This document shows, one piece after another, positions 1,888 to 22,700 of a stretch of DNA of 64,000 nt; position 1 is the stretch's first letter; the number at the start of each line of letters is the position of its first letter. The notes under the pieces were generated by a model. The model was not told the DNA's origin. It saw nothing but the letters and a program-made list of their open reading frames with translations, and did no database searches. The translations under genes were made by a program, and so were the position numbers. The stretch comes from Gemmatales bacterium. GTDB lineage: Bacteria > Planctomycetota > Planctomycetia > Gemmatales > HRBIN36. The stretch spans positions 352,001 to 416,000 of the forward strand of contig JBEPZY010000001.1 of NCBI GenBank assembly GCA_041640595.1, read 5' to 3'.

Positions 1888-1905
1888 GAGTTTTCTCCTT
1901 TTCAG

Positions 1906-3090: not shown

Positions 3091-3107
3091 GTAGCGGCTT
3101 CCGGTGT

Positions 3108-3932
3108 TTAGCGAAGGTTTTTCGGGCGGGTGCCAATGTTCAGGAATCGAACGACTTCCGTCATGGGAGCGTTGAAGACGAAGCCGCGTGATCGATAAGT
3201 AACGGGCAGGTTTTCGTTTTGTGCCAGCGAGACAATATGCGGCGGCAAAATGCTGGACATGCGGAACAGTAAACGGGCATGATCGTCAGGCAGGTAAGCA
3301 TCATCTTCAGGATACAGGCAGGGCTGCGCTTTGGTTTCCGAGATGTGCAGGTTGAACAGCAAAACCTGGCCATCTTGGGTAGCCAGTTGGCGAATGGCGG
3401 TTGCTTCATCTTCCGGGTCGCCATCTGTTGGTTGCCCGTCTGTTATGTTGATCACAATAGGCGGGAAGGAGCGAGGATGTGCAGCGACCCAGTGGTTGAG
3501 AATCGCATACGCTCGCCGCAACGCTGCGCACATGGGAGTGCCATCATCGGCCACCGGCTCAACCCACACCGGGAATCGGCGTTCACGCTCCTGGTCCCGA
3601 CGTACTTCGACACGCAGAGGTGACGCAGCCAGTTCGGAAACGCGTACTAACTCCCTGCCACTCAACGCCCCGCCTAATGCCGAACCTACTATTCCCCCTT
3701 GAGCACCATAGCCGATGACGCCAATCTCGTAATAGTCGCGTACGCCTTCACGGGCATCTTTGGTGCAGCGAATGCACAAATCCATGAGCAGACGATTCAA
3801 AGCGTCGGCCAAAGCATCCGCTTTACGTCGGCCGCTTTCATCTCCTACTGGATCACTCATCGAGCCGGATTGGTCAATCAGGAACAGGAAGCAGGTTGGA
3901 TTGCTGCGGCTGATTTCTGCCTCGTAGGCCAT
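3108..3932 (-). CDS. vWA-domain protein (TerY/YegL-like)
   Basis: MIDAS motif DQSGSM, plus GTPM and NITDGQPTD. ATG at 3932 with AAGGAG RBS (ORF track extends to 3977). Confidence 0.85.
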   Translation of the reverse strand: MAYEAEISRSNPTCFLFLIDQSGSMSDPVGDESGRRKADALADALNRLLMDLCIRCTKDAREGVRDYYEIGVIGYGAQGGIVGSALGGALSGRELVRVSELAASPLRVEVRRDQERERRFPVWVEPVADDGTPMCAALRRAYAILNHWVAAHPRSFPPIVINITDGQPTDGDPEDEATAIRQLATQDGQVLLFNLHISETKAQPCLYPEDDAYLPDDHARLLFRMSSILPPHIVSLAQNENLPVTYRSRGFVFNAPMTEVVRFLNIGTRPKNLR

Positions 3933-4210
3933 TGTTGTACTCCTTGTTCTTGGTTTGCTTGAATTCCGCCTGTCCAACTACTTAAACGGAAGTCGTGAAT
4001 TGTTTGTGACACAAAAGTTGCCCGGAATCGTTTGGAGGAGACGATGCAGCGGGGATACGCCTGGGAGCCGTCGTTTACGGAACTGTCATCTTTTGGTCGC
4101 TTGCTGCGTTAAACAACTGGCACATTTCGCCGCGAAAGCTGCTTTCGTGCGAACAACGACTAAGCGGGATTTCTTCAGGCAAAGGAAAGCCAGTAAGGAA
4201 GGAGCATGCC

Positions 4211-4525
4211 ATGTACTTTCTGGTGGCTTACGACATTTCCGATCCGAAACGGTTACAGCGAGTCGCCCGCTTTATGGAACGGCGTGCTTTACGCTGCCAG
4301 AAGTCGGTCTTCATGTACCAGGGTGATGTCCAGGGGGTCAGTCGCCTTTTAAACGAGGTAGTCGAGTTGCTCGATACGCAGTCCGACATTGTGCAGGTCT
4401 GGCAACTGGCGCGAGGTCAGCCCTTGACCGGTTGGTATCGCGGTCGGCCCATGCCGCTGGACCCGGCTGGCTGTGTCGTAGCAGGTAACCGTGCCGTCCT
4501 GGTCGAAAAACCCCGACGGGGCTAA
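4211..4525 (+). CDS. cas2: CRISPR-associated endoribonuclease Cas2
   Basis: MYFLVAYDISDPKRLQRVARFM...CQKSVF signature, 104 aa, GGAG RBS. Confidence 0.92.
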   Translation: MYFLVAYDISDPKRLQRVARFMERRALRCQKSVFMYQGDVQGVSRLLNEVVELLDTQSDIVQVWQLARGQPLTGWYRGRPMPLDPAGCVVAGNRAVLVEKPRRG

Positions 4526-4564: not shown

Positions 4565-4854
4565 GTGCGAGATGACAGCGGGTTACTTTCTACGCGGGCC
4601 TACGGATACGGTCACGAAGGCAGTCATCCATGGAATCGCCCAGCTCCGTTACTCCCGTAAGTCGGTATAGCTCCCGCGGTGCAACCCGAGCGCTTCTCGA
4701 GGGTTGCTGCGCATGGATTTTCCTGACCCGGTCTCGCGTTCCTACGAAACCAATCAAGCACCGGTTGGCGCCATTGAAAGGGGCCCCGATAGCTGGTGCA
4801 GAAACAGCGTCGCGGGTAGGAAAATTTTTGTCACATCGAACGGTCATCTTGCGT
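4565..4854 (+). ncRNA. Candidate structured RNA between cas2 and the RT gene
   Basis: Nested stems read directly: 4567-4576/4843-4852, 4626-4632/4712-4718, 4642-4672 hairpin, 4681-4687/4701-4707, 4718-4730/4813-4824 and 4758-4766/4791-4799. No credible ORF. Expression is not shown. Confidence 0.45.
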
Positions 4855-4903
4855 TATCTAGGAGGAAGGAAAGTCAACCCATCACACGAAAGGATGCCTA
4901 GCC

Positions 4904-6556
4904 ATGCCAGCGATGAACGGCCAACCAGTGATTGAGGTGTTACCACGGGTTTATCGGAGTATTCCCGCTCCCCAGCGAGCTCTGGAAGAGCTGCAGGCAG
5001 AGCTTTACGCAGAGGTACGGGCGAAAGGTCGGCCCGTCGGCCAACTGGTAACTGCTCTGCTCGACCGCCGCAACTTGTACGCTGCCTGGCGATTTGTCCG
5101 GAATGCCGATGGTGCTGACACCCCGGGGCCGGATGGCCTGACTTGCAAGGACCTGGAACAATCGGCGGATTCCGGGGATGCTTTGCATCGCTTGTTCGAA
5201 CAGATTAGCCGGGACATACTTGATGGCCGTTATTGTCCGCAACCGCCGCGCTGGGTAGAGGTTCCCAAGCCTAATGGTGGTACTCGGCGTTTGGGCATCC
5301 TGACGGTGCGGGATCGCCTTGTGCATGCCGCTCTCAAAAACGTTCTCGAACCTATCCTGGAGCCGATTTTTACTTCCGCCAGCTTTGGTTTTCGACCGGG
5401 GAGAAGCACCACTGCTGCTTTGCTGGCGGCCATTAGATGGGCCGGCCCAGATGATCACGGCCGGCTCGTTTATCCCTATGCCATGCATCTGGATATCGAG
5501 GACTGTTTCGACACCATAGACCACCAGCATCTGTTCAGCGCCCTTTCCGAGCATGTTGCCGATGCTATCGTCCTGAAGCTTCTTCGCAAGCTGTTGGAAG
5601 CCTGTGCCCATTCGGTGCGTCGCTGGTTTCGCACTTACTACGTTGGGCTGTTGCAGGGAAGTGTGCTTTCGCCGCTTTTATGCAATTTGGCTCTGCACTC
5701 CCTCGACAAGGTTATGCTCAACATGCGCAGCGCCACCCAGAAGGGTATCGCTTATTTCCGTTATGCGGACGACTTACTCATCCTGGCTCGCAGCGAAGAG
5801 CTGGCAGTCAAGGCTTTTCGTTCTGCCAGCGCTTTTTTGCAGAGCATCGGACAGCGCTTCAAGGCCCGCAAACCGGAAATCGCTCTCCTCACTCGCGGTG
5901 TCGAATGGCTTGGCATGCGTATCTGCGTCACCGTCAATCCCTGGACCTCGAAACTTCAGCCCGGTTACTACATTCCAGATGCCTGTGTGGCCGAGATGGT
6001 CCAACGCCTTCAGGAAATGACCGTTCCTCCCAGTGCTAAGCTATCGGAGCAAACCTTCGACCTCCGCCAATGGATCATATCTATCAACCGGCAGTTGCAA
6101 GGCTGGCACAATGCCTATCAATACGCCGAGAATTTTTACCAGGTGGCCCGTACACTCGATGACGTTGTTCAGCAGCGGTTCGAAGAGCTTCTGATGGCTG
6201 TCACCGGCAAAGGGCGTCAGTACGTACGGGGCACTTATCGGGTTCGTTTGCCCCGCGGATTCACGACTTGGCAGGTAGATGGGGAGCAGTTGCTGGTGCT
6301 ATCGTCCAAGCCGCCGCATTTCCCCAATCCGAAACTGCTCTACCAACGACCCGCCTGGATGCGTGCTCCGCAGAACGCCATCCTACCGCAAGCCAACGCT
6401 GGCCAGACGCCATTCTGGTTGAACAATTTGCCTCAGCAGGCTCTGCCTCAGCCGCAAGCCCAACCGCCGAATGCCTTTGCTAACCCTCAGGATACCACAA
6501 ATCAACCTGGGCCCCCCACAGGAACTAATCCGGCCACCGGTCAGCACAATCCCTAA
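4904..6556 (+). CDS. CRISPR-associated reverse transcriptase (group II intron-like RT/maturase, not fused to Cas1)
   Basis: RT0 (NLYAAW..TPGPDG), PKPNGGTRRLGI, SFGFRPGRS, LDIEDCFDTIDH, LQGSVLSPLL, catalytic YADD, WLG and thumb-like GW. No HNH domain. Pro/Gln/Asn-rich tail. Located between cas2 and cas1. Confidence 0.92.
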   Translation: MPAMNGQPVIEVLPRVYRSIPAPQRALEELQAELYAEVRAKGRPVGQLVTALLDRRNLYAAWRFVRNADGADTPGPDGLTCKDLEQSADSGDALHRLFEQISRDILDGRYCPQPPRWVEVPKPNGGTRRLGILTVRDRLVHAALKNVLEPILEPIFTSASFGFRPGRSTTAALLAAIRWAGPDDHGRLVYPYAMHLDIEDCFDTIDHQHLFSALSEHVADAIVLKLLRKLLEACAHSVRRWFRTYYVGLLQGSVLSPLLCNLALHSLDKVMLNMRSATQKGIAYFRYADDLLILARSEELAVKAFRSASAFLQSIGQRFKARKPEIALLTRGVEWLGMRICVTVNPWTSKLQPGYYIPDACVAEMVQRLQEMTVPPSAKLSEQTFDLRQWIISINRQLQGWHNAYQYAENFYQVARTLDDVVQQRFEELLMAVTGKGRQYVRGTYRVRLPRGFTTWQVDGEQLLVLSSKPPHFPNPKLLYQRPAWMRAPQNAILPQANAGQTPFWLNNLPQQALPQPQAQPPNAFANPQDTTNQPGPPTGTNPATGQHNP

Positions 6557-6588: not shown

Positions 6589-7617
6589 ATGGCGAAGCAC
6601 ATCACCTACGTGCAAACCCCGGTTGCCCATGTGGTCGGACCAGGCAAACTTAGGATTATCAACGGCCGCCTAGCTTTCACCACGGGCAACGGTACTCCCC
6701 TGCGCCTTGACCTCAACACTTTGCGTGCCATTTACTGCTACGGCAACGTCGGGGCAACTGATGAGGCGATACAACTGCTTTTTCAGCACGGCATTGACGT
6801 CGTTTGGCTTTCTCCAGCAGGTAACGAGTGTCGCGGACGACTCGTCCGCTACGATTCCAGCTCCGCTGCTTTGCGGATGATACAGCATCGCGTTTTGGCC
6901 CATCCACCCGCTCGACTGGAACTGGCCCGCTTCATCGTCCAGGCCAAAATTGAATCCCAAATGAAGGCCGCCAGGCATTATCAGCGCCAGGGGCTTTCTA
7001 TTGCCGGCAAATTCATCGAACAACTTCAGTCCGTTTTGGCTATGCTGCCCAGCGTGGCCTCTCTGGACGCCCTTCGTGGCTTTGAAGGACAGGCCTCCGC
7101 TCTCTGGTACGAGCTTTTCTCCCAGCTTCTTGTTCCCCCGTGGACCTTCCCTGGCCGCAACCGCAGACCACCTACAGACCCAGTCAATGCCTTGCTTAGC
7201 CTCGGCTACACCTTGCTCTTCCGCCGCACAGAGGCTAGAACCGAAGCTCACGGCTTGGAAGTCGCTCTGGGAGCTTTGCATGAATTCCGACACGGCCGAC
7301 CTTCCCTGGCCTGTGACTTTGTGGAGCCGTTTCGCGTCCCCGCTGTCGACCGATGGGTCCTGACTATTTGCAATCAACACCGCCTGCAGCCCCAACATTT
7401 CCAAAATACCCCGGAAGGTATCCGTTTGACCCCTGACATGTTTCCTCGTATCATTGCTTCGTGGGAACAACATTTCGTATCTCACGGTTTTGAACGCTCT
7501 TTGGAAAACTGCCTTCAGCAATGGATAAGCATCCTACGGTCCTGGGCGAACCGCTTGCCTGACCCCCTTTTGCCACCCCAGGACAGTGCACCCCCAGGCA
7601 ACACCGTAACTTCCTGA
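6589..7617 (+). CDS. cas1: CRISPR-associated integrase Cas1
   Basis: Motifs LRGFEGQAS, RRPPTDPVNALLSLGY, GALHE and LACDFVEPFR. GGAGG RBS. Adjacent to the array. Confidence 0.95.
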   Translation: MAKHITYVQTPVAHVVGPGKLRIINGRLAFTTGNGTPLRLDLNTLRAIYCYGNVGATDEAIQLLFQHGIDVVWLSPAGNECRGRLVRYDSSSAALRMIQHRVLAHPPARLELARFIVQAKIESQMKAARHYQRQGLSIAGKFIEQLQSVLAMLPSVASLDALRGFEGQASALWYELFSQLLVPPWTFPGRNRRPPTDPVNALLSLGYTLLFRRTEARTEAHGLEVALGALHEFRHGRPSLACDFVEPFRVPAVDRWVLTICNQHRLQPQHFQNTPEGIRLTPDMFPRIIASWEQHFVSHGFERSLENCLQQWISILRSWANRLPDPLLPPQDSAPPGNTVTS

Positions 7618-7748: not shown

Positions 7749-10700
7749 CTCGCAACTTAGACCCCAACCAATAGGGGATTGAAACGATAGCGGCTACTAC
7801 CATTGTTCCTCCCTCCTTGGGCTCGCAACTTAGACCCCAACCAATAGGGGATTGAAACGCCGGGCCCTGGCCTTCCGGCTGGAGACCAGGGCCAGCTCGC
7901 AACTTAGACCCCAACCAATAGGGGATTGAAACAGTTCTGATGAGAAAGTTATACCCGCCGGCGTAGATGCTCGCAACTTAGACCCCAACCAATAGGGGAT
8001 TGAAACTGCATCTGTTGGCAAAGACTATCAATACCTTTAGAAACTCGCAACTTAGACCCCAACCAATAGGGGATTGAAACCGCCAGGGTTCCGGCCTGTA
8101 TCCGCGCTGCCGCCCCAGCCTCGCAACTTAGACCCCAACCAATAGGGGATTGAAACACTCGCAAGACGGGTATTGGCCTGTATCCGCGCTGCCGCCTCGC
8201 AACTTAGACCCCAACCAATAGGGGATTGAAACGACACTGCTGCCCCAGCAATAATCATGTCCAACCACCTCGCAACTTAGACCCCAACCAATAGGGGATT
8301 GAAACGTCGAAACTACTTCTTGCCCCGCCGCCCCCGCCCGGCTCGCAACTTAGACCCCAACCAATAGGGGATTGAAACCACTGCTGCCCCAGCAATAATC
8401 ATGTCCAACCACCTCCTCGCAACTTAGACCCCAACCAATAGGGGATTGAAACAATCATGTCCAACCACCTCCTTGGGCCCGTTGATAAACTCGCAACTTA
8501 GACCCCAACCAATAGGGGATTGAAACGGTGCGAGGCAGCTACTTCTTGTTTTTGCTACGCCCGCCTCGCAACTTAGACCCCAACCAATAGGGGATTGAAA
8601 CTGAACTTGCACCCTAAGCTTTTCCAGCTCCGCCAGACTCGCAACTTAGACCCCAACCAATAGGGGATTGAAACCATTGCGGCTCCGGCTATCATACTCC
8701 CCTCCTTTGGGCTCGCAACTTAGACCCCAACCAATAGGGGATTGAAACCTCCGGCTATCATACTCCCCTCCTTTGGGCCGAATAACTCGCAACTTAGACC
8801 CCAACCAATAGGGGATTGAAACAATCCGACAATGATGGATACTAGGCAGATTGCGGCTCTCGCAACTTAGACCCCAACCAATAGGGGATTGAAACCACAC
8901 AAACAACAACATCTTGGATAACCTTTGGTAACTCGCAACTTAGACCCCAACCAATAGGGGATTGAAACACCAACCAAACCTCCGATGCCGCCACGCATTC
9001 CCGGCTCGCAACTTAGACCCCAACCAATAGGGGATTGAAACAGCAGACGACCCCTGGCCGGACTCGATGAGTTGCATGACTCGCAACTTAGACCCCAACC
9101 AATAGGGGATTGAAACAGTATCCAACCAAGAATTACACTGACCAGTGCCAAACTCGCAACTTAGACCCCAACCAATAGGGGATTGAAACAATGACCATCT
9201 AACACTTTACCTTCATAAAGACAACCTCGCAACTTAGACCCCAACCAATAGGGGATTGAAACACCGTAGACGCCGAGGATGAGAGGCCTAAGCATTCAAT
9301 CTCGCAACTTAGACCCCAACCAATAGGGGATTGAAACCAAAGACGAGGCCTGCGGCTCCTCACTGGTCCACCCCTCGCAACTTAGACCCCAACCAATAGG
9401 GGATTGAAACACATTTCGTCAGAATCTGTTTGCCCCAACATTAACGCCTCGCAACTTAGACCCCAACCAATAGGGGATTGAAACGGCCAGGAGGAATCCG
9501 ACTAGCACAGATACTAAGGACTCGCAACTTAGACCCCAACCAATAGGGGATTGAAACACTGCCGCGCCGACAACAATCATAATTCTCCCCTCCTCTCGCA
9601 ACTTAGACCCCAACCAATAGGGGATTGAAACCAACGAATTTTGCAAAATTGGTAACGCAGTTTCCAAACTCGCAACTTAGACCCCAACCAATAGGGGATT
9701 GAAACGCGGGCGATGCGGGCCAGTATGAACCCGAGGAGGACCTCGCAACTTAGACCCCAACCAATAGGGGATTGAAACCCCGAGGAGGACAGAAACGAGA
9801 GAAATGCCAGCGCCCTCGCAACTTAGACCCCAACCAATAGGGGATTGAAACGTCTTCTTGGCCCGGGGCTCCCGCCGGGCCCGGCGGGCCTCGCAACTTA
9901 GACCCCAACCAATAGGGGATTGAAACATCATGTCCTCTCCTCCTGCGTCTGGGGCCCGTTGATCTCGCAACTTAGACCCCAACCAATAGGGGATTGAAAC
10001 CGGGCGATGGCCCTGTCGACGGAACTTACGGATCTGCACTCGCAACTTAGACCCCAACCAATAGGGGATTGAAACAGTGGTGCCCGCGCTTCCGCCGCAG
10101 AAGCGCGCCGACCTCGCAACTTAGACCCCAACCAATAGGGGATTGAAACGGGCACTCCAATTGAAGTGGTGCCCGCGCTTCCGCCGCCTCGCAACTTAGA
10201 CCCCAACCAATAGGGGATTGAAACCTTCCCGGCGTCCGCCGCCTGCGGCTCCCCACTGGGCCTCGCAACTTAGACCCCAACCAATAGGGGATTGAAACTT
10301 GCCCGCCGCGGGCCTCGTCAAAGACGAGGCCGCACTCGCAACTTAGACCCCAACCAATAGGGGATTGAAACATCGTTCATCAAACCCATCAACCAAATCC
10401 AACTCACAACTCGCAACTTAGACCCCAACCAATAGGGGATTGAAACAAAAGTACTGCGCCACGCGCTCCATATGGCTGCCTCCTCGCAACTTAGACCCCA
10501 ACCAATAGGGGATTGAAACATACCAGCTCCAACAATAATCATGTCCTCTCCTCCTCGCAACTTAGACCCCAACCAATAGGGGATTGAAACACCAGCTCCA
10601 ACAATAATCATGTCCTCTCCTCCTGCGCTCGCAACTTAGACCCCAACCAATAGGGGATTGAAACTTGCGGGTCTTGCCCCGCCGCCGCTCCCGCCGAGAC

Positions 10701-13700
10701 CTCGCAACTTAGACCCCAACCAATAGGGGATTGAAACCCCGATCAAGAGAGAGACCAAAGCAACCCCCGCCCCTCTCGCAACTTAGACCCCAACCAATAG
10801 GGGATTGAAACACGGCGCTATTTCTTGCGGGTCTTGCCCCGCCGCCGCTCTCGCAACTTAGACCCCAACCAATAGGGGATTGAAACGCCCGGGCCGCCGG
10901 GAGACCCGGATGCGGGCCAGGACACTCGCAACTTAGACCCCAACCAATAGGGGATTGAAACCTTACCTGCCTGTGGCGTGACGCTAAGTCTTGCGGCCTC
11001 GCAACTTAGACCCCAACCAATAGGGGATTGAAACCCGAGAACGACGGAAACGAGCGCTATTGTTGACCCGGCCTCGCAACTTAGACCCCAACCAATAGGG
11101 GATTGAAACCCCGGCTATCATACTCACCCTCCTGCGTTGCGTCTTTCTCGCAACTTAGACCCCAACCAATAGGGGATTGAAACTGAGCCGGCGGTACAAT
11201 TCCCGCCGGTCCTCGGTGGTCTCGCAACTTAGACCCCAACCAATAGGGGATTGAAACCCGGCTCCCCACTGGGCACTCCAACTGAAGTGGTGCCCGCCTC
11301 GCAACTTAGACCCCAACCAATAGGGGATTGAAACTGCTCCCAACACCATTTTTCTCCCCTCCATTTGGGCTCGCAACTTAGACCCCAACCAATAGGGGAT
11401 TGAAACTGTCCCGCCCGGGCCGCCGCCCCCGGCTGCTCCGGGCCTCGCAACTTAGACCCCAACCAATAGGGGATTGAAACCCATGTGGCGTGGCGGGTGT
11501 TAAGACTTGCGGCGGGTCTCGCAACTTAGACCCCAACCAATAGGGGATTGAAACGACGAGGCCGCAGTCAGGGCAGCGGCTGGCCTCCTCGGCTCGCAAC
11601 TTAGACCCCAACCAATAGGGGATTGAAACGGCGTCGACCGGGCGACCACCCGATCGGAATTTGTGGCTCGCAACTTAGACCCCAACCAATAGGGGATTGA
11701 AACGCGGTCAGATCGAAAAGAAAGGACAAAATTATAATCTCGCAACTTAGACCCCAACCAATAGGGGATTGAAACCCCCCCCGCGTTTACCGGCCTTCCT
11801 TGGCCGGTTGCCCCTCGCAACTTAGACCCCAACCAATAGGGGATTGAAACGCCAGTATGAATCCGACCAGGACCGAAATGATAGAAACTCGCAACTTAGA
11901 CCCCAACCAATAGGGGATTGAAACGACCAGGACCGAAATGATAGAAATGGAAGCTCCCAACAACTCGCAACTTAGACCCCAACCAATAGGGGATTGAAAC
12001 CCAACAACATTTTTTTCCTCCACATTTGGTTTTGGCCTCGCAACTTAGACCCCAACCAATAGGGGATTGAAACGATAGAAATGGAAGCTCCCAACAACAT
12101 TTTTTCCTCCCTCGCAACTTAGACCCCAACCAATAGGGGATTGAAACGCCGCTACAATGCGGCAAGGGCGTGGCCGTGCCACTCCTCGCAACTTAGACCC
12201 CAACCAATAGGGGATTGAAACGCGGGACAAGCGCAAGTAGCCGTCGTCACGATCTTTCTCGCAACTTAGACCCCAACCAATAGGGGATTGAAACAATGGC
12301 CGCTCCAGCAATAATCATATTCTCCCTCCATCTCGCAACTTAGACCCCAACCAATAGGGGATTGAAACAGCAATAATCATATTCTCCCTCCATTGGGCCA
12401 GTTGACTCGCAACTTAGACCCCAACCAATAGGGGATTGAAACACAGCGCAAGGCTGGATACTCAACGAAGCCGATGCACTCGCAACTTAGACCCCAACCA
12501 ATAGGGGATTGAAACACCCGGTTACGCCGAGTGAGCCGGCGATACAACTCCCCTCGCAACTTAGACCCCAACCAATAGGGGATTGAAACGGCCTGATGGG
12601 GTTTCCAGTCGCCATCCTGCCCGTGCCCTCGCAACTTAGACCCCAACCAATAGGGGATTGAAACAACTACCACGGCGGCCTGCCTCTGACCCCTAACCCA
12701 GCTCGCAACTTAGACCCCAACCAATAGGGGATTGAAACACGCCGAGTGAGCCGGCGATACAACTCCCGGCGGTCCTCGCAACTTAGACCCCAACCAATAG
12801 GGGATTGAAACTAGGCAGGCCTGATGGGGTTTCCAGTCGCCATCCTGCCTCGCAACTTAGACCCCAACCAATAGGGGATTGAAACAATAGACCTTGCGAT
12901 TAAGTCTGCGGAAGTTCTCATGCTCGCAACTTAGACCCCAACCAATAGGGGATTGAAACTTCTCGCCCGGCTCCTGGGCCTCCGGAGCCGGGCACTCGCA
13001 ACTTAGACCCCAACCAATAGGGGATTGAAACAACAGGTGACGGAACCCTAAACTTCTTCACCTTCGACTCGCAACTTAGACCCCAACCAATAGGGGATTG
13101 AAACACCTTCGACACTTTAACCTCAATGTTACCATCCAGGCTCGCAACTTAGACCCCAACCAATAGGGGATTGAAACTTAGCCTTCCGCAGGACTTCGTC
13201 CGGAACACGCAATCTCGCAACTTAGACCCCAACCAATAGGGGATTGAAACCGTCCCCCCACTACCCCGATGTAGTGGGGGCGGACACCTCGCAACTTAGA
13301 CCCCAACCAATAGGGGATTGAAACTCAAACAGGTGACGGAACCCTAAACTTCTTCACCTTCTCGCAACTTAGACCCCAACCAATAGGGGATTGAAACTGG
13401 CCATACATGCAAGGCGGCCACCTATGCCAGCCAACCTCGCAACTTAGACCCCAACCAATAGGGGATTGAAACCCGGAGCGGACCCGGGCTAGGATAAACC
13501 CAATCAGAACTCGCAACTTAGACCCCAACCAATAGGGGATTGAAACCCGCCGCCGCCCCCGGCTCTTGCCCCGGTCCCGCCGCCTCGCAACTTAGACCCC
13601 AACCAATAGGGGATTGAAACTCCCGGCGGCTCACTCGGAGGTTATCCGGGGCCTCCCTCTCGCAACTTAGACCCCAACCAATAGGGGATTGAAACCGCGG

Positions 13701-16700
13701 GGGCACGCTCGGTTCCTCCGAGTGAGCCGCCGGTCTCGCAACTTAGACCCCAACCAATAGGGGATTGAAACCGACCTTCCTTGGTCGGTTGCCCGCTGCG
13801 GCCCTCGTCCTCGCAACTTAGACCCCAACCAATAGGGGATTGAAACGCAGTCTGGGCAGCGGGTGGTCTCTTCCCTCAACGGCCCTCGCAACTTAGACCC
13901 CAACCAATAGGGGATTGAAACACCCGGGCAAGGATAAATCCGGTTAGCACTGAGATCACTCGCAACTTAGACCCCAACCAATAGGGGATTGAAACTCTTA
14001 CCCTCCATTTTTTGGTCCTTGGGGCCCGTTGACTCGCAACTTAGACCCCAACCAATAGGGGATTGAAACTCCACCGACGCGACTTCTGCACCTTTAAGCC
14101 CTCCTCCTCGCAACTTAGACCCCAACCAATAGGGGATTGAAACTGCTGCTCCGCCTGCTGCTGCTGCTGCTGCTCCCTCGCAACTTAGACCCCAACCAAT
14201 AGGGGATTGAAACAACTTCGATGTGACCACCATCCAGAAGAATCCTAGCACTCGCAACTTAGACCCCAACCAATAGGGGATTGAAACCGCAAAGCACATG
14301 AGATGTATTTGAAAAATCCTAAATCTCGCAACTTAGACCCCAACCAATAGGGGATTGAAACACTGCTGACCCTAGCAGCATCTTTCTCCTCCCTCATCTC
14401 GCAACTTAGACCCCAACCAATAGGGGATTGAAACTGTCCCGCCCGGTCCGCCGCCGGGCGAGGCGGGCCAGCTCGCAACTTAGACCCCAACCAATAGGGG
14501 ATTGAAACGCATCTTTCTCCTCCCTCATGGTCCTTGGGGCCCGTTCTCGCAACTTAGACCCCAACCAATAGGGGATTGAAACAGCATCTTTCTCCTCCCT
14601 CATGGTCCTTGGGGCCCGTTCTCGCAACTTAGACCCCAACCAATAGGGGATTGAAACATCACCCAATTACAAATAGCCGCCGGGATTCTTTCCCCTCGCA
14701 ACTTAGACCCCAACCAATAGGGGATTGAAACGACTTGCCCTGCTGAGGCTCGTCGAAGACGAGCCGGCACTCGCAACTTAGACCCCAACCAATAGGGGAT
14801 TGAAACGAGGTACTCGCAGGACGGGTATTGACCTGTATCCGCGCTCGCAACTTAGACCCCAACCAATAGGGGATTGAAACAGCGGGTGGCTTCCTCCGTC
14901 AACGGCCACCCGCAACGCTCGCAACTTAGACCCCAACCAATAGGGGATTGAAACGGAACGCACGAAACGCACGCAAACCATCCTCTAAACCTCGCAACTT
15001 AGACCCCAACCAATAGGGGATTGAAACAACGCCAGGAAACCTGCCCGTGCGGTGGGCCGCCCTCCTCGCAACTTAGACCCCAACCAATAGGGGATTGAAA
15101 CCGCTATTTCTTGCGGGTCTTGCGCCCCCGCCCCCGGCCTCGCAACTTAGACCCCAACCAATAGGGGATTGAAACAGTAAGATCGCTCTCGAAAGTCAAT
15201 CGCGATGTCCGCCTCGCAACTTAGACCCCAACCAATAGGGGATTGAAACGACAGTAACTCCATCGTTCCGGCAAACTACTTGGTACTCGCAACTTAGACC
15301 CCAACCAATAGGGGATTGAAACGATTCTTGCTCCGCCGACCCCGCCGACCCCGCCGGAGCTCGCAACTTAGACCCCAACCAATAGGGGATTGAAACACTC
15401 TTCGATGTCCTGTACGGGCCTGATGGCACCACCTCGCAACTTAGACCCCAACCAATAGGGGATTGAAACCACCCCTTCTCGCCCGGCTCCTGGGCCTACG
15501 GCAGCCCTCGCAACTTAGACCCCAACCAATAGGGGATTGAAACCGCGATGTCCGCCTCTTCTGGGTTTTCGTCATCCCAACTCGCAACTTAGACCCCAAC
15601 CAATAGGGGATTGAAACGGAATTTATCCTTTTCATTTTCCATAACCTCCTCAAACTCGCAACTTAGACCCCAACCAATAGGGGATTGAAACCTATTAAGA
15701 TGAGGTCGTAATATTACGTTTACGTGCCTCGCAACTTAGACCCCAACCAATAGGGGATTGAAACTTTTTTGAGTAAGATCGCTCTCGAAAGTCAATCGCG
15801 CTCGCAACTTAGACCCCAACCAATAGGGGATTGAAACCTTCGTCCCTTTTCGGCCCATCCTTCTCGCCCGGCTCCTCGCAACTTAGACCCCAACCAATAG
15901 GGGATTGAAACTCAGGAGCCGGGCAAAGTCCGACCCCCGCTACCCCGCTCGCAACTTAGACCCCAACCAATAGGGGATTGAAACGTTCCTTCCTAACATT
16001 ATCTTCTGGTTCGTGTTTTTCGCTCGCAACTTAGACCCCAACCAATAGGGGATTGAAACTTTTATAACTGCTACACGGACCACGGCCTTCCCTCCTTCTC
16101 GCAACTTAGACCCCAACCAATAGGGGATTGAAACCCTGTGGCGGGCGGCTACGACTTCTTGCGCTTCTTCTTCTCGCAACTTAGACCCCAACCAATAGGG
16201 GATTGAAACCACTACCATTCCTACACCTCCTTCCTTTGGTTTTGGCTCGCAACTTAGACCCCAACCAATAGGGGATTGAAACCCCGGGAGATTGGTCTTT
16301 GCCGCCGGGCCCGGGCCAGCCTCGCAACTTAGACCCCAACCAATAGGGGAATTGAAACGCCCATAACATTTCTCTTTCCTCCTGGTCTTTGGGGCCCTCG
16401 CAACTTAGACCCCAACCAATAGGGGATTGAAACGACCACGCCCCCGCCCGGGCCACCGGGAGACCCGGGCCTCGCAACTTAGACCCCAACCAATAGGGGA
16501 TTGAAACCATTTCTCTTTCCTCCTGGTCTTTGGGGCCCGAATACTCGCAACTTAGACCCCAACCAATAGGGGATTGAAACTGACAGCTGCCCATAACATT
16601 TCTCTTTCCTCCTGGTCCTCGCAACTTAGACCCCAACCAATAGGGGATTGAAACGGCCCGGGCGGGGGCGTGGTCTTTGGGGCCCGAATAAACTCGCAAC

Positions 16701-19700
16701 TTAGACCCCAACCAATAGGGGATTGAAACAACATTTCTCTTTCCTCCTGGTCTTTGGGGCCCGAATCTCGCAACTTAGACCCCAACCAATAGGGGATTGA
16801 AACGTAGTACTTTGCGTAGTGCATAATATCCCTCCTATAGCCTCGCAACTTAGACCCCAACCAATAGGGGATTGAAACAACGATAACTTCATAAACGCCG
16901 GATTTTTCAACAAACTCGCAACTTAGACCCCAACCAATAGGGGATTGAAACAGAACACAAACGTTTCAAACTTTGATTTAACCCAGTCTCGCAACTTAGA
17001 CCCCAACCAATAGGGGATTGAAACGACAGACAGCTGCTCCTAGCATGTCCATTTCCTCCGCTCGCAACTTAGACCCCAACCAATAGGGGATTGAAACACC
17101 TGGCGGGTGCGAGGCTAAGTCTTGCGCTTTTTTCTCGCAACTTAGACCCCAACCAATAGGGGATTGAAACTCCGTCTTTGGGGCCCGTTGATAAGACCCC
17201 TCCCTACTCGCAACTTAGACCCCAACCAATAGGGGATTGAAACGCTCTTGTCCCGCTCCCGGCGGGTCCGGGCCCGGCGCTCGCAACTTAGACCCCAACC
17301 AATAGGGGATTGAAACATAATTCCCGGCGGTCCTCGACATCGACCTGCCGGACCTCGCAACTTAGACCCCAACCAATAGGGGATTGAAACGCTGTGGGGC
17401 TAAGGCGGAAACCCCACAATCCTGCCTCGCAACTTAGACCCCAACCAATAGGGGATTGAAACGACGCGGGCAAGCAGGAATCCAATTAGGACGGAGGCCT
17501 CGCAACTTAGACCCCAACCAATAGGGGATTGAAACTCCTGTTACTTCTGAAAGAGTTTCCAGTCGACAAAACCTCGCAACTTAGACCCCAACCAATAGGG
17601 GATTGAAACCGCTTGGACCTGTTCTTGCTGAGGTTGATCAGCTTGCTCGCAACTTAGACCCCAACCAATAGGGGATTGAAACACTACCATTTCCCTTTTT
17701 TAGGAGTTGAAGCTGACCAAACTCGCAACTTAGACCCCAACCAATAGGGGATTGAAACTATAATACCCTCTATAAGGCTTGGCATGGGCCTTAATCCTCG
17801 CAACTTAGACCCCAACCAATAGGGGATTGAAACTCGGCGGGCCGCTTTTCTTTGGAGGGAACGCCGGTCCTCGCAACTTAGACCCCAACCAATAGGGGAT
17901 TGAAACAGAAATGGCCGCTCCGGCTATCATATTTCCTCCCTCCCTCGCAACTTAGACCCCAACCAATAGGGGATTGAAACACTATGTCCCTTCCGTGATA
18001 GAGGTACTCGCAGGACGGCTCGCAACTTAGACCCCAACCAATAGGGGATTGAAACGGCTAAGGCGGAAACCCCACAATCCTGCCTCTGGGCCTCGCAACT
18101 TAGACCCCAACCAATAGGGGATTGAAACCCTCGTCCGTCAACGGCCACCCGCAACGGGGGCACTATGCTCGCAACTTAGACCCCAACCAATAGGGGATTG
18201 AAACGGCCAATGCCGGGTAGATTGTATCTAACGCCACGGGCCTCGCAACTTAGACCCCAACCAATAGGGGATTGAAACACAGGTACACTTTATCAAACCC
18301 GTACTCCTTGCCTTTCTCGCAACTTAGACCCCAACCAATAGGGGATTGAAACGACGCCGTCTGCTACGCGGGGGCTACCGGGCTCCGGCCTCGCAACTTA
18401 GACCCCAACCAATAGGGGATTGAAACACTGGACAACCGGCTCGAACTTCAAGCCAAGACTGGCCTCGCAACTTAGACCCCAACCAATAGGGGATTGAAAC
18501 GTCCGTCAACGGCCACCCGCAACGGGGGCATGCCCGGCTCGCAACTTAGACCCCAACCAATAGGGGATTGAAACGACGTGGCCGCCGGACCCGTCGGATA
18601 TGGCCGCCGTCCTCGCAACTTAGACCCCAACCAATAGGGGATTGAAACGCAATCGCCTTGGGCACCACGGGACGTGGCCGCCGGACTCGCAACTTAGACC
18701 CCAACCAATAGGGGATTGAAACTCCATTTTAATGCCCACGCGGCAATCGCCTTGGGCACCTCGCAACTTAGACCCCAACCAATAGGGGATTGAAACACAA
18801 CGGAAACAATTGCTATGACTGATCTGGCTATCTCGCAACTTAGACCCCAACCAATAGGGGATTGAAACGTTATCCAGATCAACAACCTCAACCTCACAAC
18901 TTCCCTCGCAACTTAGACCCCAACCAATAGGGGATTGAAACTAATGTGTAGTCTCTCATCAGGTTGAATGCCACATTTCTCGCAACTTAGACCCCAACCA
19001 ATAGGGGATTGAAACGTGAAGCTGCGGCTTGTCATATTTGACCTCCTTTCTAACTCGCAACTTAGACCCCAACCAATAGGGGATTGAAACACCGAAACGA
19101 TTGCTACTGCTGCTCCTATAACCATAACTCGCAACTTAGACCCCAACCAATAGGGGATTGAAACGCTGCTCCTATAACCATAATTTCCTCCTGCGTCTTT
19201 CTCGCAACTTAGACCCCAACCAATAGGGGATTGAAACCCTGCCATCGGGCCATCCAGGCCATTGCGGCCCATGCCTCGCAACTTAGACCCCAACCAATAG
19301 GGGATTGAAACATATGAAACCGCATGGTAGAGTTGTTCATTTGCAGGCTCGCAACTTAGACCCCAACCAATAGGGGATTGAAACAATTACTTCAGCATAT
19401 CGCTCAATATATCGGACCATGCTCGCAACTTAGACCCCAACCAATAGGGGATTGAAACTCATATCCTCCCTCCATTATGGTTTGGGCCCGTTGACTCGCA
19501 ACTTAGACCCCAACCAATAGGGGATTGAAACAGCATAACATCTCATTAAGTGAACGCTCTTCCTAACCTCGCAACTTAGACCCCAACCAATAGGGGATTG
19601 AAACGCAAGGGCGTGGCCGTGCCACTCAGCCGGGTTCATACTCGCAACTTAGACCCCAACCAATAGGGGATTGAAACGCAGTCTGGGCAGCGGGTGGCTT

Positions 19701-22700
19701 CCTCGGTGAGAGGCCTCGCAACTTAGACCCCAACCAATAGGGGATTGAAACGGTTCATAGGCCGGAACCGGGAACCGGCCTCCCCCGACCTCGCAACTTA
19801 GACCCCAACCAATAGGGGATTGAAACGCCTGATGGGGTTTCCAGTCGCCATCCTGCCCGTGCCCTCGCAACTTAGACCCCAACCAATAGGGGATTGAAAC
19901 GCCCGGCTGAGTGGCACGGACAGGAGGCGCCGCCTTTCTCGCAACTTAGACCCCAACCAATAGGGGATTGAAACGGGTTCATAGGCCGGAACCGGGAACC
20001 GGCCTCCCCCGCTCGCAACTTAGACCCCAACCAATAGGGGATTGAAACCGTTCCTGCTTTCCCTCTATGTCCCTTCCGTGATAGAGGCTCGCAACTTAGA
20101 CCCCAACCAATAGGGGATTGAAACCGTGAACATTTACAGGAGTAAGGTCTTCACCACCTTCTCGCAACTTAGACCCCAACCAATAGGGGATTGAAACACC
20201 AGGGTCGGGTCGGTCCTCTCCCCTGGCCCGTAACCTCGCAACTTAGACCCCAACCAATAGGGGATTGAAACGTCGAAGACGAGCCCGCAGTCTGGGCAGC
20301 GGGTGGCCTCGCAACTTAGACCCCAACCAATAGGGGATTGAAACACGCGGGGGCTACCGGGCTCCGGCAGCCCGGGCCCCCCTCGCAACTTAGACCCCAA
20401 CCAATAGGGGATTGAAACCCCAGCGCGGAGCCGGGACCGTGGCCAACTACCACGGCCTCGCAACTTAGACCCCAACCAATAGGGGATTGAAACTTTCGGA
20501 GCTGTTGCTATTGATGTTTTCAATACTACTCGCAACTTAGACCCCAACCAATAGGGGATTGAAACCGTTGATGACCCCTCCTACCGGGCCGGCCCCATCG
20601 CCCTCGCAACTTAGACCCCAACCAATAGGGGATTGAAACAGCCTCCCGCCAGTACTCCCTATACCCGTGCGGTGAGCCTCGCAACTTAGACCCCAACCAA
20701 TAGGGGATTGAAACCCACGCCCCCCGCCCCCGCCGGGAGAGCAGGGCCAGGCTCGCAACTTAGACCCCAACCAATAGGGGATTGAAACGATAAATCTTGT
20801 TAAACTTAGCGTAACACCTCATCCTCGCAACTTAGACCCCAACCAATAGGGGATTGAAACCCCTGTGGCGGGCGGCTAAGACTTCTTGCGCCCCCGGCTC
20901 GCAACTTAGACCCCAACCAATAGGGGATTGAAACACGGGTATTGAACCTGTATCCGCGCTGCCGCCCCAGCCTCGCAACTTAGACCCCAACCAATAGGGG
21001 ATTGAAACGTCCTTAACAACCGACATAAACGGAATGCCCAAATACTCGCAACTTAGACCCCAACCAATAGGGGATTGAAACACTCTAACTGGATCATCCG
21101 AAAACGTAGCCAAAACCTCGCAACTTAGACCCCAACCAATAGGGGATTGAAACGCTTCCTCGGTGAGAGGCCACCCGCAGCGGGGGCACACCCTCGCAAC
21201 TTAGACCCCAACCAATAGGGGATTGAAACTAGCGAACGTGCAACTCTAACTGGATCATCCGAAAACCTCGCAACTTAGACCCCAACCAATAGGGGATTGA
21301 AACATCCGCGCTGCCGCCCCAGCGCGGAGCCGGGACCGTGCTCGCAACTTAGACCCCAACCAATAGGGGATTGAAACAGTTATCTCCCTGGGGTTTTGGT
21401 GAACTCCCGGCAGCCTCGCAACTTAGACCCCAACCAATAGGGGATTGAAACGTCCTTACCAGTCGGTGGCAATGGCTCGGGATTCACCTCGCAACTTAGA
21501 CCCCAACCAATAGGGGATTGAAACCCTGGGTTAAAAATGGGCACACAAAAAGGAGGCGCCCTCGCAACTTAGACCCCAACCAATAGGGGATTGAAACGGT
21601 CGTTATTAAGGTGAATACCACAAACGGTTCCAATACTCGCAACTTAGACCCCAACCAATAGGGGATTGAAACAGTAGTGAATTAACGGATGATCCGACAA
21701 ATCATCAACCTCGCAACTTAGACCCCAACCAATAGGGGATTGAAACCTCTCTTCTTTTGTTTTCTTGGTAGTTTTTGTCGAACTCGCAACTTAGACCCCA
21801 ACCAATAGGGGATTGAAACGCTGTTAGGCCGCCGTGGTTGGAGAAAGCATGAGCTCCTCGCAACTTAGACCCCAACCAATAGGGGATTGAAACACCCGCG
21901 GGGGCCGGCCTTCCCTGTGGCGGGTACGAGACTCGCAACTTAGACCCCAACCAATAGGGGATTGAAACGACGTGACGGCTAAGACTTCTTGCGCCCCCGC
22001 CGGGCTCGCAACTTAGACCCCAACCAATAGGGGATTGAAACAATAGCTATGACTGATCCTCCCAACATACCTCCCTCCTCGCAACTTAGACCCCAACCAA
22101 TAGGGGATTGAAACCGGGAGAGACTGGCGGCTGGTCTAGAACTGGCCCCGCTCTCGCAACTTAGACCCCAACCAATAGGGGATTGAAACCTGTGGCGGGT
22201 ACGGCTAAGACTTCTTGCGCCCCCGCCTCGCAACTTAGACCCCAACCAATAGGGGATTGAAACACTTTGTGAATGTGAGCTACCTCCATCCACGAATATC
22301 CTCGCAACTTAGACCCCAACCAATAGGGGATTGAAACACCGACCCGCGGGGGCCGGTCTTCCTGGCGGGTGCTCGCAACTTAGACCCCAACCAATAGGGG
22401 ATTGAAACTGTCTACATCCTCACTGCTTTCGTGAGGGTCCCAAACTCGCAACTTAGACCCCAACCAATAGGGGATTGAAACGCCACTTGAGGACCCAACA
22501 GCGAATTGGTGACGGGCTCGCAACTTAGACCCCAACCAATAGGGGATTGAAACCGGACCATGGCTATCCTCCTGTTTGGCCCGCCCTTCCTCGCAACTTA
22601 GACCCCAACCAATAGGGGATTGAAACTTCTCGCCCGGCTCCTGGGCCTCCGGCAGCCGGGCACTCGCAACTTAGACCCCAACCAATAGGGGATTGAAACA

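Follow-up and report, generated by a model that had tools for sequence, protein, structure and literature searches.

What kind of invader would leave 17 overlapping spacers from one 185-nt stretch in a single CRISPR array? The array in question belongs to a hot-spring bacterium and is the only one in the 64-kb window (the whole stretch of DNA analysed). It is very long, with 246 identical repeats and one variant enclosing 246 spacers of 33–40 nt. The genes upstream of it run cas2, reverse transcriptase (RT), cas1, with the RT 33 nt upstream of cas1 (Table 1). The RT scored 241.5 bits against TIGR04416, under the cut-off of 300 for a true intron maturase, and none of the window matched a group II intron RNA model. 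The locus combines regular identical repeats, adjoining cas1 and cas2, and a cas1-adjacent RT outside any group II intron. Type III effectors are encoded elsewhere in the genome, including Cmr2 on C8 (285.9 bits) and Csm1 on C23 (621.1 bits), both above cut-off. There are 14 RAMP matches and several Cas10/RAMP (type III) loci, none of which adjoins the array. The repeat ends in ATTGAAAC on the + strand, which we take, by a repeat-3'-end rule, to give the direction of transcription. Together with Rfam CRISPR-DR10 matches that are weak and confined to the + strand, this suggests + strand transcription of the array.

Table 1. Adaptation genes, array, and spacers of the zinc-ribbon (ZnR) family, in window coordinates; codons are numbered along the 185-nt tile.
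Feature	Position	Strand	Description
cas2	4211..4525	+	Pfam CRISPR_Cas2, E 2.9e-12; TIGR01573 above cut-off
Reverse transcriptase	4904..6556	+	Group-II-intron-like, unfused to cas1; Pfam RVT_1, E 1.6e-33
cas1	6589..7617	+	Pfam Cas_Cas1, E 6e-74; TIGR00287 above cut-off
CRISPR array	7749..25934	+	247 repeats of 37 nt ending in ATTGAAAC; 246 spacers
ZnR spacer	17317..17353	-	Codons 1-12
ZnR spacer	11184..11220	-	Codons 5-16, variant
ZnR spacer	12739..12774	-	Codons 8-19
ZnR spacer	12516..12552	-	Codons 11-21
ZnR spacer	13696..13734	-	Codons 14-25
ZnR spacer	18501..18537	-	Codons 21-32, first CxxC
ZnR spacer	18129..18167	-	Codons 22-33; codon 22 is an in-frame TAG, immediately ahead of first CxxC
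ZnR spacer	21154..21192	-	Codons 22-33, first CxxC
ZnR spacer	14881..14917	-	Codons 25-36; both arms of 9-bp stem
ZnR spacer	13847..13884	-	Codons 29-40, variant
ZnR spacer	19678..19714	-	Codons 29-40, second CxxC
ZnR spacer	11555..11592	-	Codons 32-43, variant
ZnR spacer	20272..20307	-	Codons 34-45
ZnR spacer	10299..10334	-	Codons 40-51; 9-bp hairpin, TTT loop
ZnR spacer	14732..14769	-	Codons 40-51, variant tail; 8-bp hairpin, TTC loop
ZnR spacer	13772..13809	-	Codons 45-57; last hairpin, variant form
ZnR spacer	11776..11813	-	Codons 50-57, stop, 11 nt past stop; last hairpin
Neighbouring spacer	13621..13658	+	19-nt core common with 13696 in opposite orientation; diverges on both sides

The 17 spacers lie between 10299 and 21192. 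Reverse-complemented, they align in a single orientation and tile 57 codons, a TAA stop, and 11 further bases. An initial annotation of this DNA had claimed that about 16 overlapping spacers reverse-complement to one composite, which proved correct. The positions it listed are real ("12517" is the spacer at 12516–12552), and our set consists of its 12 plus 11184, 18501, 18129, 13847, and 11555. Two related spacers were not counted in the set: 13621, which has a 19-nt core in common but runs in the opposite orientation, and 9338, whose similarity is partial. The edges of this ZnR island are sharp. All 17 spacer starts fall inside 148 nt, and none of the 246 spacers in the array overlaps past either end.

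Differences among the overlapping spacers show that the frame is genuinely coding and under protein-level constraint. Of the codon pairs that differ in frame 0, 71 are synonymous and 45 non-synonymous, whereas the other two frames give ratios of 10:113 and 7:105. Variable columns number 13, 9, and 24 at codon positions 1, 2, and 3, so that third positions account for 24 of 46, and changes in codons 7–46 are almost all synonymous or conservative; the annotation had noted several variants of these kinds. The peptide has an arginine-rich stretch and, after it, a predicted C4 zinc ribbon, with CPRC, 10 residues, and CPDC in the two-knuckle arrangement. All four Cys codons are invariant, each covered by 4–6 spacers. 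In its layout, two CxxC 10 residues apart with a basic stretch before them, it resembles Pfam Zn_Ribbon_1 (PF13240) and DZR (PF12773), of which it is a candidate member. The annotation had described a small two-CxxC protein; both CxxC are present, but the protein is not necessarily small, since the 57-codon tile has no start codon and the ORF may therefore extend upstream. After residue 46 the amino acids are free to differ between variants, yet the nucleotides retain a GGGCAA block, in one case with the register shifted, and one of four variants (spacer 18129) carries the in-frame TAG before the first CxxC. In a neighbouring family (8081, 8157, 14807, 20935), variants differ in length by 1 nt. 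These three observations are what a non-coding structured nucleic acid would explain, its two-CxxC frame being a by-product of G+C-rich palindromes. The synonymous excess in a single frame, the share of third positions, and the conservation of codons 7–46 make such an origin very unlikely.

The stretch is both protein-coding and unusually base-paired. Folding was done on the joined sequence of the 17 fragments, which derive from different variants, and composite A reached a minimum free energy (MFE) of −113.8. Dinucleotide shuffles gave −87.8 ± 4.3 (z −6.1) and synonymous-codon permutations −93.2 ± 5.3 (z −3.9), with 0 of 200 reaching the MFE in either control. The same two controls gave z of −4.6 and −4.4 for composite B, and 36 host coding windows had a mean z of 0.04 and a minimum of −2.5. 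Most pairs in the 3' domain have a probability of at least 0.99. The fold is about as strong on the antisense strand (−110.3) as on the sense strand, and the G+C content is 71%, compared to 48%–61% in the host coding windows. All three stems named in the annotation are present: the 9-bp stem in 14881, the hairpin shared by 14732 and 10299, and the last hairpin in 11776 and 13772. The compensatory change that it reported in the last stem was also found (G-C to A-T, 11776 vs 13772), as was one in another stem (C-G to G-C, 10299 vs 14732, each in its own register). Covariation support amounts to these two events, because predicted pairing does not go with a shortage of variable columns (33/117 paired vs 13/41 unpaired) and 15 of 111 observed pair cells across single ZnR spacers are broken, in part by a register shift between variants.

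Hairpins were also evaluated in single spacers. Five were tested, of which four were each matched by 5–10 of 500 shuffles and the fifth, 13772, by 85 of 500. Hairpin-prone spacers (z < −2) make up 6 of the 17 in the ZnR family, the most folded family of the array, and 35 of 246 (14%) in the array as a whole, compared to 15 of 246 host 37-mers (6%). Hairpin richness may therefore partly explain why the ZnR stretch was sampled.

We searched for the target of these spacers in the host and in sequence collections. When all 246 spacers were compared with the 4.45-Mb host genome by blastn-short, only seven matches fell outside the array, six of 17–18 nt and one of 25/27. A tblastn search of the host genome with the ZnR composite recovered the array plus one weak zinc-ribbon ORF (E 0.006) and nothing else. 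That ORF encodes 43 residues, with a basic stretch, then CxxC, 10 residues, and CxxC, and its matches to Pfam DZR and Zn_Ribbon_1 are under cut-off. Its layout is the one point in favor of self-targeting, that is, of a target in the host itself or in a close strain. Its identity to the ZnR peptide is 33% over 46 residues, and it has no spacer match at the DNA level. Among 266 other genomes from the host's order, none contained the ZnR pattern with up to two mismatches allowed, and the target is absent from the species-representative genome collection. The 131 spacers of three same-genus genomes have nothing longer than 12 nt in common with the array. A self gene is thus close to refuted, and the initial annotation's own alternative of an ordinary host gene finds no support in these searches. 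The target is also absent from the viral and metagenome contigs and the phage and plasmid collections searched. With no protospacer in any collection searched, the ZnR gene is known only as a 17-fragment mosaic. The one sequencing run in which part of the array occurs carries the label hot springs metagenome.

Overlap extends to the array as a whole. Ninety-five same-orientation overlap edges connect 110 of the 246 spacers, compared to two edges when one partner is flipped and none in each of two shuffled spacer sets. If sampling is even, overlaps this frequent correspond to an effective target of only about 3–6 kb. An SD+ATG start occurs in 37 of 246 reverse-complemented spacers; the + strand has 2 of 246, and a reversed control has 6 of 246. 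Since the reverse complement of the ZnR spacers is the coding sense, crRNAs from the + strand would be complementary to ZnR mRNA. We consider it probable that a single foreign gene, from an unsequenced invader that existed in several diverged variants, was a hot spot of spacer sampling and gave rise to all 17.

Hot spots of this kind have been reported for type III-A adaptation in Streptococcus thermophilus, where they occur at hairpin-forming DNA (Zhang et al., NAR 2022, PMC8860593). As described there, the islands are narrow, heavily re-sampled, and partially palindromic, with no PAM, as is the ZnR island, and hairpin-prone spacers are overrepresented in the present array too. The S. thermophilus system differs in host and temperature, is RT-less, and takes up spacers in both orientations, whereas the present array is RT-linked with an orientation ratio of 95:2. 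Hot spots in S. thermophilus were reported at origins, oriT, promoters, and attenuators; the ZnR island is the coding end of a gene. Strand bias in type III systems is reported to arise by selection (Artamonova et al., NAR 2020, PMC7515739), and spacer hot spots to lie downstream of early promoters (Noble-Molnar et al., NAR 2026, PMC13575424). In those accounts, surviving crRNAs are complementary to invader mRNA and spacers fall on a few early promoter-proximal genes, which matches the SD+ATG count here; their targets are known dsDNA phages, whereas the present invader is known from spacers alone. An RT-Cas1 system is reported to have no mechanism that orients spacers (Silas et al., eLife 2017, PMC5576922).

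The invader could on this basis be an ordinary double-stranded DNA phage or plasmid, with the ZnR stretch and the other re-sampled families being small, fast-evolving early genes under high expression, its DNA captured at transcription or hairpin hot spots with the RT uninvolved. RT-less hot spots at hairpin DNA (PMC8860593) and downstream of early phage promoters (PMC13575424) point this way, as does a strong strand bias obtained by selection alone (PMC7515739). The SD+ATG spacers represent starts of several different short ORFs, and the variants differ in sequence context, as in mosaic phage early regions. The G+C content of the ZnR stretch would be unusual for a phage of this host, the effective target is only a few kilobases if sampling was even, and the phage, plasmid, viral, and metagenome collections gave no match. 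We regard a dsDNA invader as possible, though rather unlikely.

The position of the RT gene between cas2 and cas1 raises a different candidate, an RNA replicon (a small ribovirus, a satellite, or a viroid-like RNA coding small proteins) whose folded genome was copied directly by RT-Cas1-Cas2. RT-linked type III modules are reported to take spacers from RNA and to hold an "enigmatic repertoire" without database match (Silas et al., mBio 2017, PMC5513706; eLife 2017, PMC5576922). The present locus has in common with these a group-II-intron-like RT beside cas1/cas2 and the array, and unmatched spacers, and its spacers too may come from RNA. It differs in that its RT is a separate, unfused gene and that more than 40% of its spacers overlap and can be assembled. 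In Roseiflexus sp. RS-1, an RT type III array from a hot spring includes spacers that derive from partiti-like viruses and from a viroid-like circular RNA of 315 nt (Lee et al., 10.1101/2022.07.19.500677). Both hot-spring systems are RT-linked type III with multiple spacers on one small, highly paired element. Metatranscriptomes yielded the Roseiflexus targets, of which the viroid-like one does not encode protein, whereas the ZnR target is coding, is known from spacers alone, and shows no ribozyme. Nine of 63 Obelisk-matching spacers have been assigned to type III (PMC13096302). A fold extreme for coding sequence, high G+C, a small implied target, many diverged variants, the lack of a DNA match in the collections searched, and the hot springs label of the sole run would all suit an RNA replicon. 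No ribozyme family reached E ≤ 5 on the array and the spacers showed no other Rfam family, although 37-nt fragments cannot contain a whole motif, and spacer translations gave no GDD-type polymerase context, only three trivial matches in a test made weak by the same fragment length. A viroid-like or Obelisk-like circular RNA would be self-paired genome-wide, as a rod or in branches. The ZnR fold is locally strong, and only three pairs of spacers are perfectly complementary over a long run (18–21 nt), which gives no sign of a rod-like genome. The coding contig of the TM-peptide spacer family is unstructured (z −0.05). We consider an RNA replicon unlikely.

The initial annotation had taken the dual constraint to suggest that the genome is single-stranded or the RNA very stable, with the ZnR and TM peptides probably on one element. 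The dual constraint is borne out by the coding and folding controls; the genome or RNA type is not established by it. Given the reported type III preference for hairpins and promoter-proximal genes, and strand bias by selection, a single-stranded genome is possible but not required. A shared element finds no support in the array, where no spacer bridges the two families and their distributions differ (permutation P about 0.013). ZnR spacers are confined to array positions 34–181, and 20 of 55 TM-unit spacers, called heuristically, lie outside that range. The closest form of the annotated idea is a small rolling-circle or ssDNA replicon (plasmid, filamentous virus, or microvirus), with the island a hairpin region that the single-stranded phase exposes, such as a single-strand origin overlapping the gene end. 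In PMC8860593, type III-A adaptation is reported to have its strongest hot spots at the single-strand origins and oriT hairpins of rolling-circle plasmids. The sharp island edges and small implied target agree with such a replicon, and similar folding of the two strands is expected of a DNA-level palindrome set. No replication or coat gene is recognisable from 12-residue fragments, and the viral and plasmid collections gave no match. The single-strand origins known so far are non-coding, whereas the ZnR stretch, despite its hairpins, is coding throughout, and we find an ssDNA replicon improbable.

For the foreign-gene hot spot that we favor, the sampled stretch would be the last 57 codons, stop, and 11 further bases of an invader gene. 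Its repeated capture, in which the RT may have copied a stable folded RNA, would follow if type III adaptation favors hairpin-forming nucleic acid; this rule comes from RT-less Streptococcus and Thermus systems and is applied to an RT-linked planctomycete system by analogy. Antisense-oriented spacers alone would then be retained because they alone let type III complexes recognise invader transcripts. The invader would maintain the hairpins, which most likely make up a folded domain at the 3' end of its RNA; a predicted stem, in which the first CxxC codons pair with bases past the stop, would close this domain. The observation itself is confirmed and its earlier interpretation partly supported. 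By analogy, the spacer pattern fits the sampling habits reported for RNA-targeting CRISPR systems.

After reverse-complementing, 17 spacers of the CRISPR array (10299-21192; named below by start position) tile one 185-nt stretch with an open frame of 57 codons followed by TAA, in agreement with the zinc-ribbon frame that the initial annotation had assembled from overlapping spacers (ZnR family). The frame runs from an arginine-rich stretch through CPRC, ten residues, and CPDC to a short variable tail. Both CxxC pairs of the "small zinc-ribbon protein" first described are present; its smallness was not borne out, because no start codon is seen in the tiled stretch and the gene probably runs on upstream. 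At least one same-orientation overlap was found for 110 of the 246 spacers, giving 95 overlap edges vs none in each of two shuffled sets, so the tiling is not a product of chance. A single component linked by shared 10-mers on either strand holds 145 of the 246, a figure inflated by short G+C-rich words.

The ZnR spacers derive from several diverged variants. Among 158 columns covered at least twice, 46 are variable (13, 9, and 24 at the first, second, and third codon positions). Differing codons in overlapping spacer pairs are synonymous in 71 cases and non-synonymous in 45 in the ZnR frame, vs 10:113 and 7:105 in the other frames. Non-synonymous changes cluster in codons 1-6 and past codon 46, and all four cysteine codons are invariant. 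The differences carry a coding signature, and the gene is real. In one of four variants at codon 22 (18129-18167), an in-frame TAG immediately precedes the first CxxC. The opening six bases of this spacer are also the end of 17981-18018, a spacer of another family two positions away, which may reflect a mosaic junction.

The three stems named initially were all found in the sequence. Five single-spacer hairpins were folded, four of which were matched by only 5-10 of 500 shuffles each and the fifth (13772) by 85 of 500. A composite joined through one variant set, and hence a mosaic of variants, has a minimum free energy of -113.8 kcal/mol. Dinucleotide shuffles averaged -87.8 ± 4.3 (z = -6.1) and permutation of synonymous codons among positions with the same amino acid gave -93.2 ± 5.3 (z = -3.9), with 0 of 200 reaching the composite in either case. 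A second composite path, in which one codon holds a join artefact, gave z values of -4.6 and -4.4. Host control windows of 185 nt (n = 36, from 12 genes) had a mean z of 0.04 and a minimum of -2.5. In the predicted 3' domain, a 7-bp stem joins the first CxxC codons with a G-run past the stop codon and encloses three hairpins, with a modeled probability of at least 0.99 for most pairs.

Covariation among variants, a check proposed in the initial annotation, yielded two compensatory changes. In the second hairpin, counted in the register of each variant, the seventh pair from the loop differs between 10299 (C-G) and 14732 (G-C), and a G-C pair of the last hairpin in 11776 becomes A-T in 13772. 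This support is thin but real. Weighing against anything stronger, variable columns are no rarer when paired (33 of 117) than when unpaired (13 of 41), and of the 111 pair cells that single spacers allow to be observed, 15 are broken, in part through a one-base register difference between variants. Sense and antisense fold energies do not tell which strand is structured, and ARAGORN was negative for tRNA-like genes on the composite. The fold of this coding sequence of the invader is extraordinary, and two of its stems carry compensating changes.

The array lies directly downstream of an adaptation module whose genes all share its + strand, and the type III effector genes are elsewhere in the genome, away from the array (see table). 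The reverse transcriptase (RT) is group-II-intron-like, with a score below the cut-off for a true intron maturase, and no intron RNA or any other Rfam family reached its gathering score within the window. No second array with the same repeat occurs in the host genome (4.45 Mb, 42 contigs). Just upstream of cas2, on the minus strand (547-3977), are a protein-kinase-domain gene, an ORF of no family, and a weak vWA-domain gene, which may be another defence-island component. Within the array, spacers 24614-24649 and 25712-25747 are identical and far apart, as are 12590-12627 and 19827-19863 except for one extra base; either the same site was captured again or a repeat-spacer unit was duplicated.

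Features of the array, its adaptation module, effector genes, and the host zinc-ribbon ORF
Feature	Location	Strand	Details
cas2	4211-4525	+	
101-codon ORF	4630-4935	+	no assigned family
Reverse transcriptase gene	4904-6556	+	
cas1	6589-7617	+	
CRISPR array	7749-25934	+	247 repeats of 37 nt (246 identical), 246 spacers of 33-40 nt
cas10, Cmr2-type	contig C8		
cas10, Csm1-type	contig C23		
Further Cas10-like matches	contigs C3 and C1		
RAMP matches	genome		n = 14
Host basic zinc-ribbon ORF	G000:C1:660057-660194 (L038 364-495)	-	43 residues; tblastn

Overlapping spacers agree in orientation 95:2. A strong Shine-Dalgarno (SD) motif followed by ATG is found in 37 of 246 reverse-complemented spacers, vs 2 of 246 on the + strand of the window and 6 of 246 in the reversed control. 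The repeat on the + strand of the array ends at its 3' side in ATTGAAAC, which we take to be the usual source of the 8-nt crRNA handle, and Rfam CRISPR-repeat matches, all of them weak, are on the + strand in all but one case. The crRNAs would thus be complementary to invader mRNAs, as type III complexes require. Spacer terminal bases have slight preferences only. In published experiments, new spacers are inserted without a set orientation by RT-Cas1 systems and by plain type III systems alike (PMC5576922; PMC8860593), and strand bias is reported to arise through selection of protective clones (PMC7515739). Because adaptation is non-orienting and bias came from selection in those experiments, we read the orientation bias here as a mark of selection, which would indicate that these spacers were useful. 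Three spacers are flipped (12222, 19901, and 21525) and four more probably are (13621, 16655, 21820, and 25639). The pairs 13621/13696, 16434/16655, and 19605/19901, each close in the array, have an 18-21-nt core in opposite orientation with flanks that diverge on both sides; they could be flipped copies of other variants or true inverted repeats in the target. In two of the three, the leader motif of the TM unit (another re-sampled family of this array, which codes for a TM peptide) stands reverse-complemented in the flipped spacer, fused to coding sequence.

The ZnR island is sharp-edged. It has 17 starts in 148 nt, and no spacer overlaps either end meaningfully by 8 nt or more; the chance of such an edge gap at the inside density is an estimated 5% or so per side. 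Two known sampling behaviours would explain the island. In S. thermophilus, type III-A adaptation is reported to draw spacers in excess from partial palindromes that form hairpins, including single-strand origins, oriT, and attenuators (PMC8860593), and from DNA just downstream of early phage promoters (PMC13575424). A double-stranded DNA phage or plasmid with its small early genes sampled is a possible, if tentative, identity for the invader. When 37-mers were folded with DNA energy parameters, 35 of 246 spacers (14%) fell below z = -2, vs 15 of 246 random host 37-mers (6%); the count was 25 of 110 for overlapping spacers, 6 of 17 for ZnR spacers, and 15 of 131 for spacers of same-genus genomes. 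Given this excess, hairpin richness is probably at least in part the reason that the ZnR stretch entered the array. This weakens the step from hairpins to a single-stranded genome, since hairpins themselves favour sampling. The proposal of a single-stranded genome or very stable RNA consequently keeps its strong fold and compensating changes and loses force as an argument about genome type. Since the module includes an RT, an equally good route would be capture from RNA with a stable fold, for instance a 3' domain resistant to decay.

We searched for the target in the host and in public databases, as an ordinary host gene had been one possibility, and it is not one. All 246 spacers gave seven blastn-short matches off the array in the host genome, six of 17-18 nt and one of 25/27. 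A tblastn search of the host genome with the composite returned the array itself and one 43-residue ORF (33% identity over 46 residues, E = 0.006), which has CxxC, ten residues, and CxxC spaced as in the ZnR target and sub-threshold Pfam zinc-ribbon matches. A degenerate pattern for the 13-residue zinc-ribbon core was found among 267 genomes of the order, where up to two mismatches were allowed, only in the window's own two spacers (0 in 266 others), and it was absent from 185,579 species (one genome each), viral contigs, and metagenome contigs. Viral contigs had no match to an exact 27-mer, the TM-unit 3' pattern, or another family's 32-mer, and blastn (word 11) of 10200-25950 against phage and plasmid records returned nothing. 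A 5'-UTR pattern was absent from metagenome contigs; its one match in genome contigs, from Micromonospora arida, is within coding DNA with no SD or ATG behind it and was taken as chance. Diverged relatives could escape these patterns, which accept exact codon families only. Given these negative searches, the target is foreign and unsampled, and its record is so far specific to this lineage.

Among public runs, one hot springs metagenome (X1) holds part of the array (0.11 of words), and no RNA runs were among the holders listed. Because its contigs carry the array flanks at 100% identity, X1 is probably the sample the genome came from and not independent. X1 contigs with both a spacer match and foreign flanks were not reported, which does not prove that there are none. 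A second run has a near-match of 36 nt (two other letters and one gap, depth 2.3), which is at chance level by estimate. Contigs of X1 join array positions differently (11338-12107; 12941-20721), e.g., with 768 nt missing and 25 other letters at the junction, and hold at least one spacer absent from the window, so array variants exist in the population. Three same-genus genomes (G256, G257, and G258; L015, L019-L036) have long arrays of a repeat with three differences from that of the window. In one of them, G258, the 213 repeat copies are spread across numerous short contigs (about 0.5-2 kb), a sign that a very long array broke up the assembly. The 131 spacers on 19 listed contigs, which cover part of the 213 repeats in G258, have no more than 12 nt in common with the window's array; they also include overlapping sets and hairpins, unrelated to those of the window. 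In the host assembly, contig C15 (L039, 9585 nt) codes for an M10 peptidase, a protein with a weak match to DNA polymerase B of the protein-primed type, and six ORFs with no Pfam family; this contig may come from a small virus or plasmid that was binned together with the host. Spacer 25639-25674 matches it at 25/27 bases within the peptidase gene.

The TM unit is real: its many variants share a strong SD, a hydrophobic start, and an arginine-rich tail, and both the 5' leader and the 3' region are conserved. A leader motif (ATCAACGGGCCC or close to it), with a strong SD and ATG after it, recurs in numerous diverged versions throughout the array, from its newest end to its oldest (7786-25859; e.g., 8453, 9927, 14509, 16508, 17171, 19459, and 24910). 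The ZnR and TM families had been judged probable parts of the same element. They do occur in joint bursts, along with other families (e.g., 19605-21378); a fixed link did not emerge from bridging, fold, or array range. No spacer bridges the two with 8-nt seeds, and contig fold z values were -0.05 for the TM coding sequence, -5.0 for ZnR, and -3.4 for another family. A regular expression called 55 TM-unit spacers, at least two of them likely false positives (14214 and 15985) and with others surely missed; 35 lie inside and 20 outside the ZnR range (array positions 34-181), with a permutation P value of 0.013 that is overstated because acquisition is bursty. The ZnR 3' end resembles the 3' region of TM with a score of 23, which 50 of 200 shuffles also reached and which is at chance level. 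The data fit either an accessory ZnR gene, present in only some of the variants, or a second, co-circulating element. A further family (12590, 12812, 15028, 16952, 17536, 19827, 20640, 23804, 24320, and 24760) keeps a short motif in translation, aspartate-tryptophan and then a basic residue, although its variants run from A+T-rich (at the old end of the array) to G+C-rich.

A small, unusual replicon is favoured by the G+C content of ZnR (71%, vs 48-61% across the coding windows of the host), the size of the effective target (only 3-6 kb under even sampling), the many diverged variants, and precedents reported for hot-spring Roseiflexus (10.1101/2022.07.19.500677) and Obelisks (PMC13096302). 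However, no ribozyme, polymerase motif, or genome-wide self-complementarity was found on the array, each a weak test on 37-nt fragments. An RNA replicon is on balance unlikely, somewhat more so than a double-stranded DNA phage or plasmid, and a rolling-circle or single-stranded DNA element is less likely still, with the remaining odds undecided. One joint reading, which we put forward tentatively and consider improbable as a whole, is that the array may be a spacer-only record of an unsampled few-kb, G+C-rich, hairpin-dense replicon (RNA or single-stranded DNA) of thermophilic Planctomycetota, with several tiny genes and a zinc-ribbon coding end that doubles as a folded terminal domain, which this lineage would have fought through dozens of variants. 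If true, the replicon would be recoverable from hot-spring RNA/DNA libraries with the assembled 185-nt stretch as bait.

We know of no RNA or single-stranded DNA element described from Planctomycetota. RT-linked CRISPR arrays are known for spacers without any match, and the ZnR case, a type III-associated array with a hot spot on the gene of an unsequenced invader, is of a kind already known; the array behaves as published sampling and selection rules predict, with no new mechanism. The initial observation is confirmed and its interpretation partly supported. What is unusual is how densely the spacers overlap: they alone suffice to reconstruct part of the target, a gene end with a strong fold. 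Sampling biases toward hairpins and start sites, for which experiments so far have been in Streptococcus, have here a natural instance from an RT-linked system, and the rebuilt stretch is a concrete probe for a parasite, absent from the collections searched, of hot-spring Planctomycetota.
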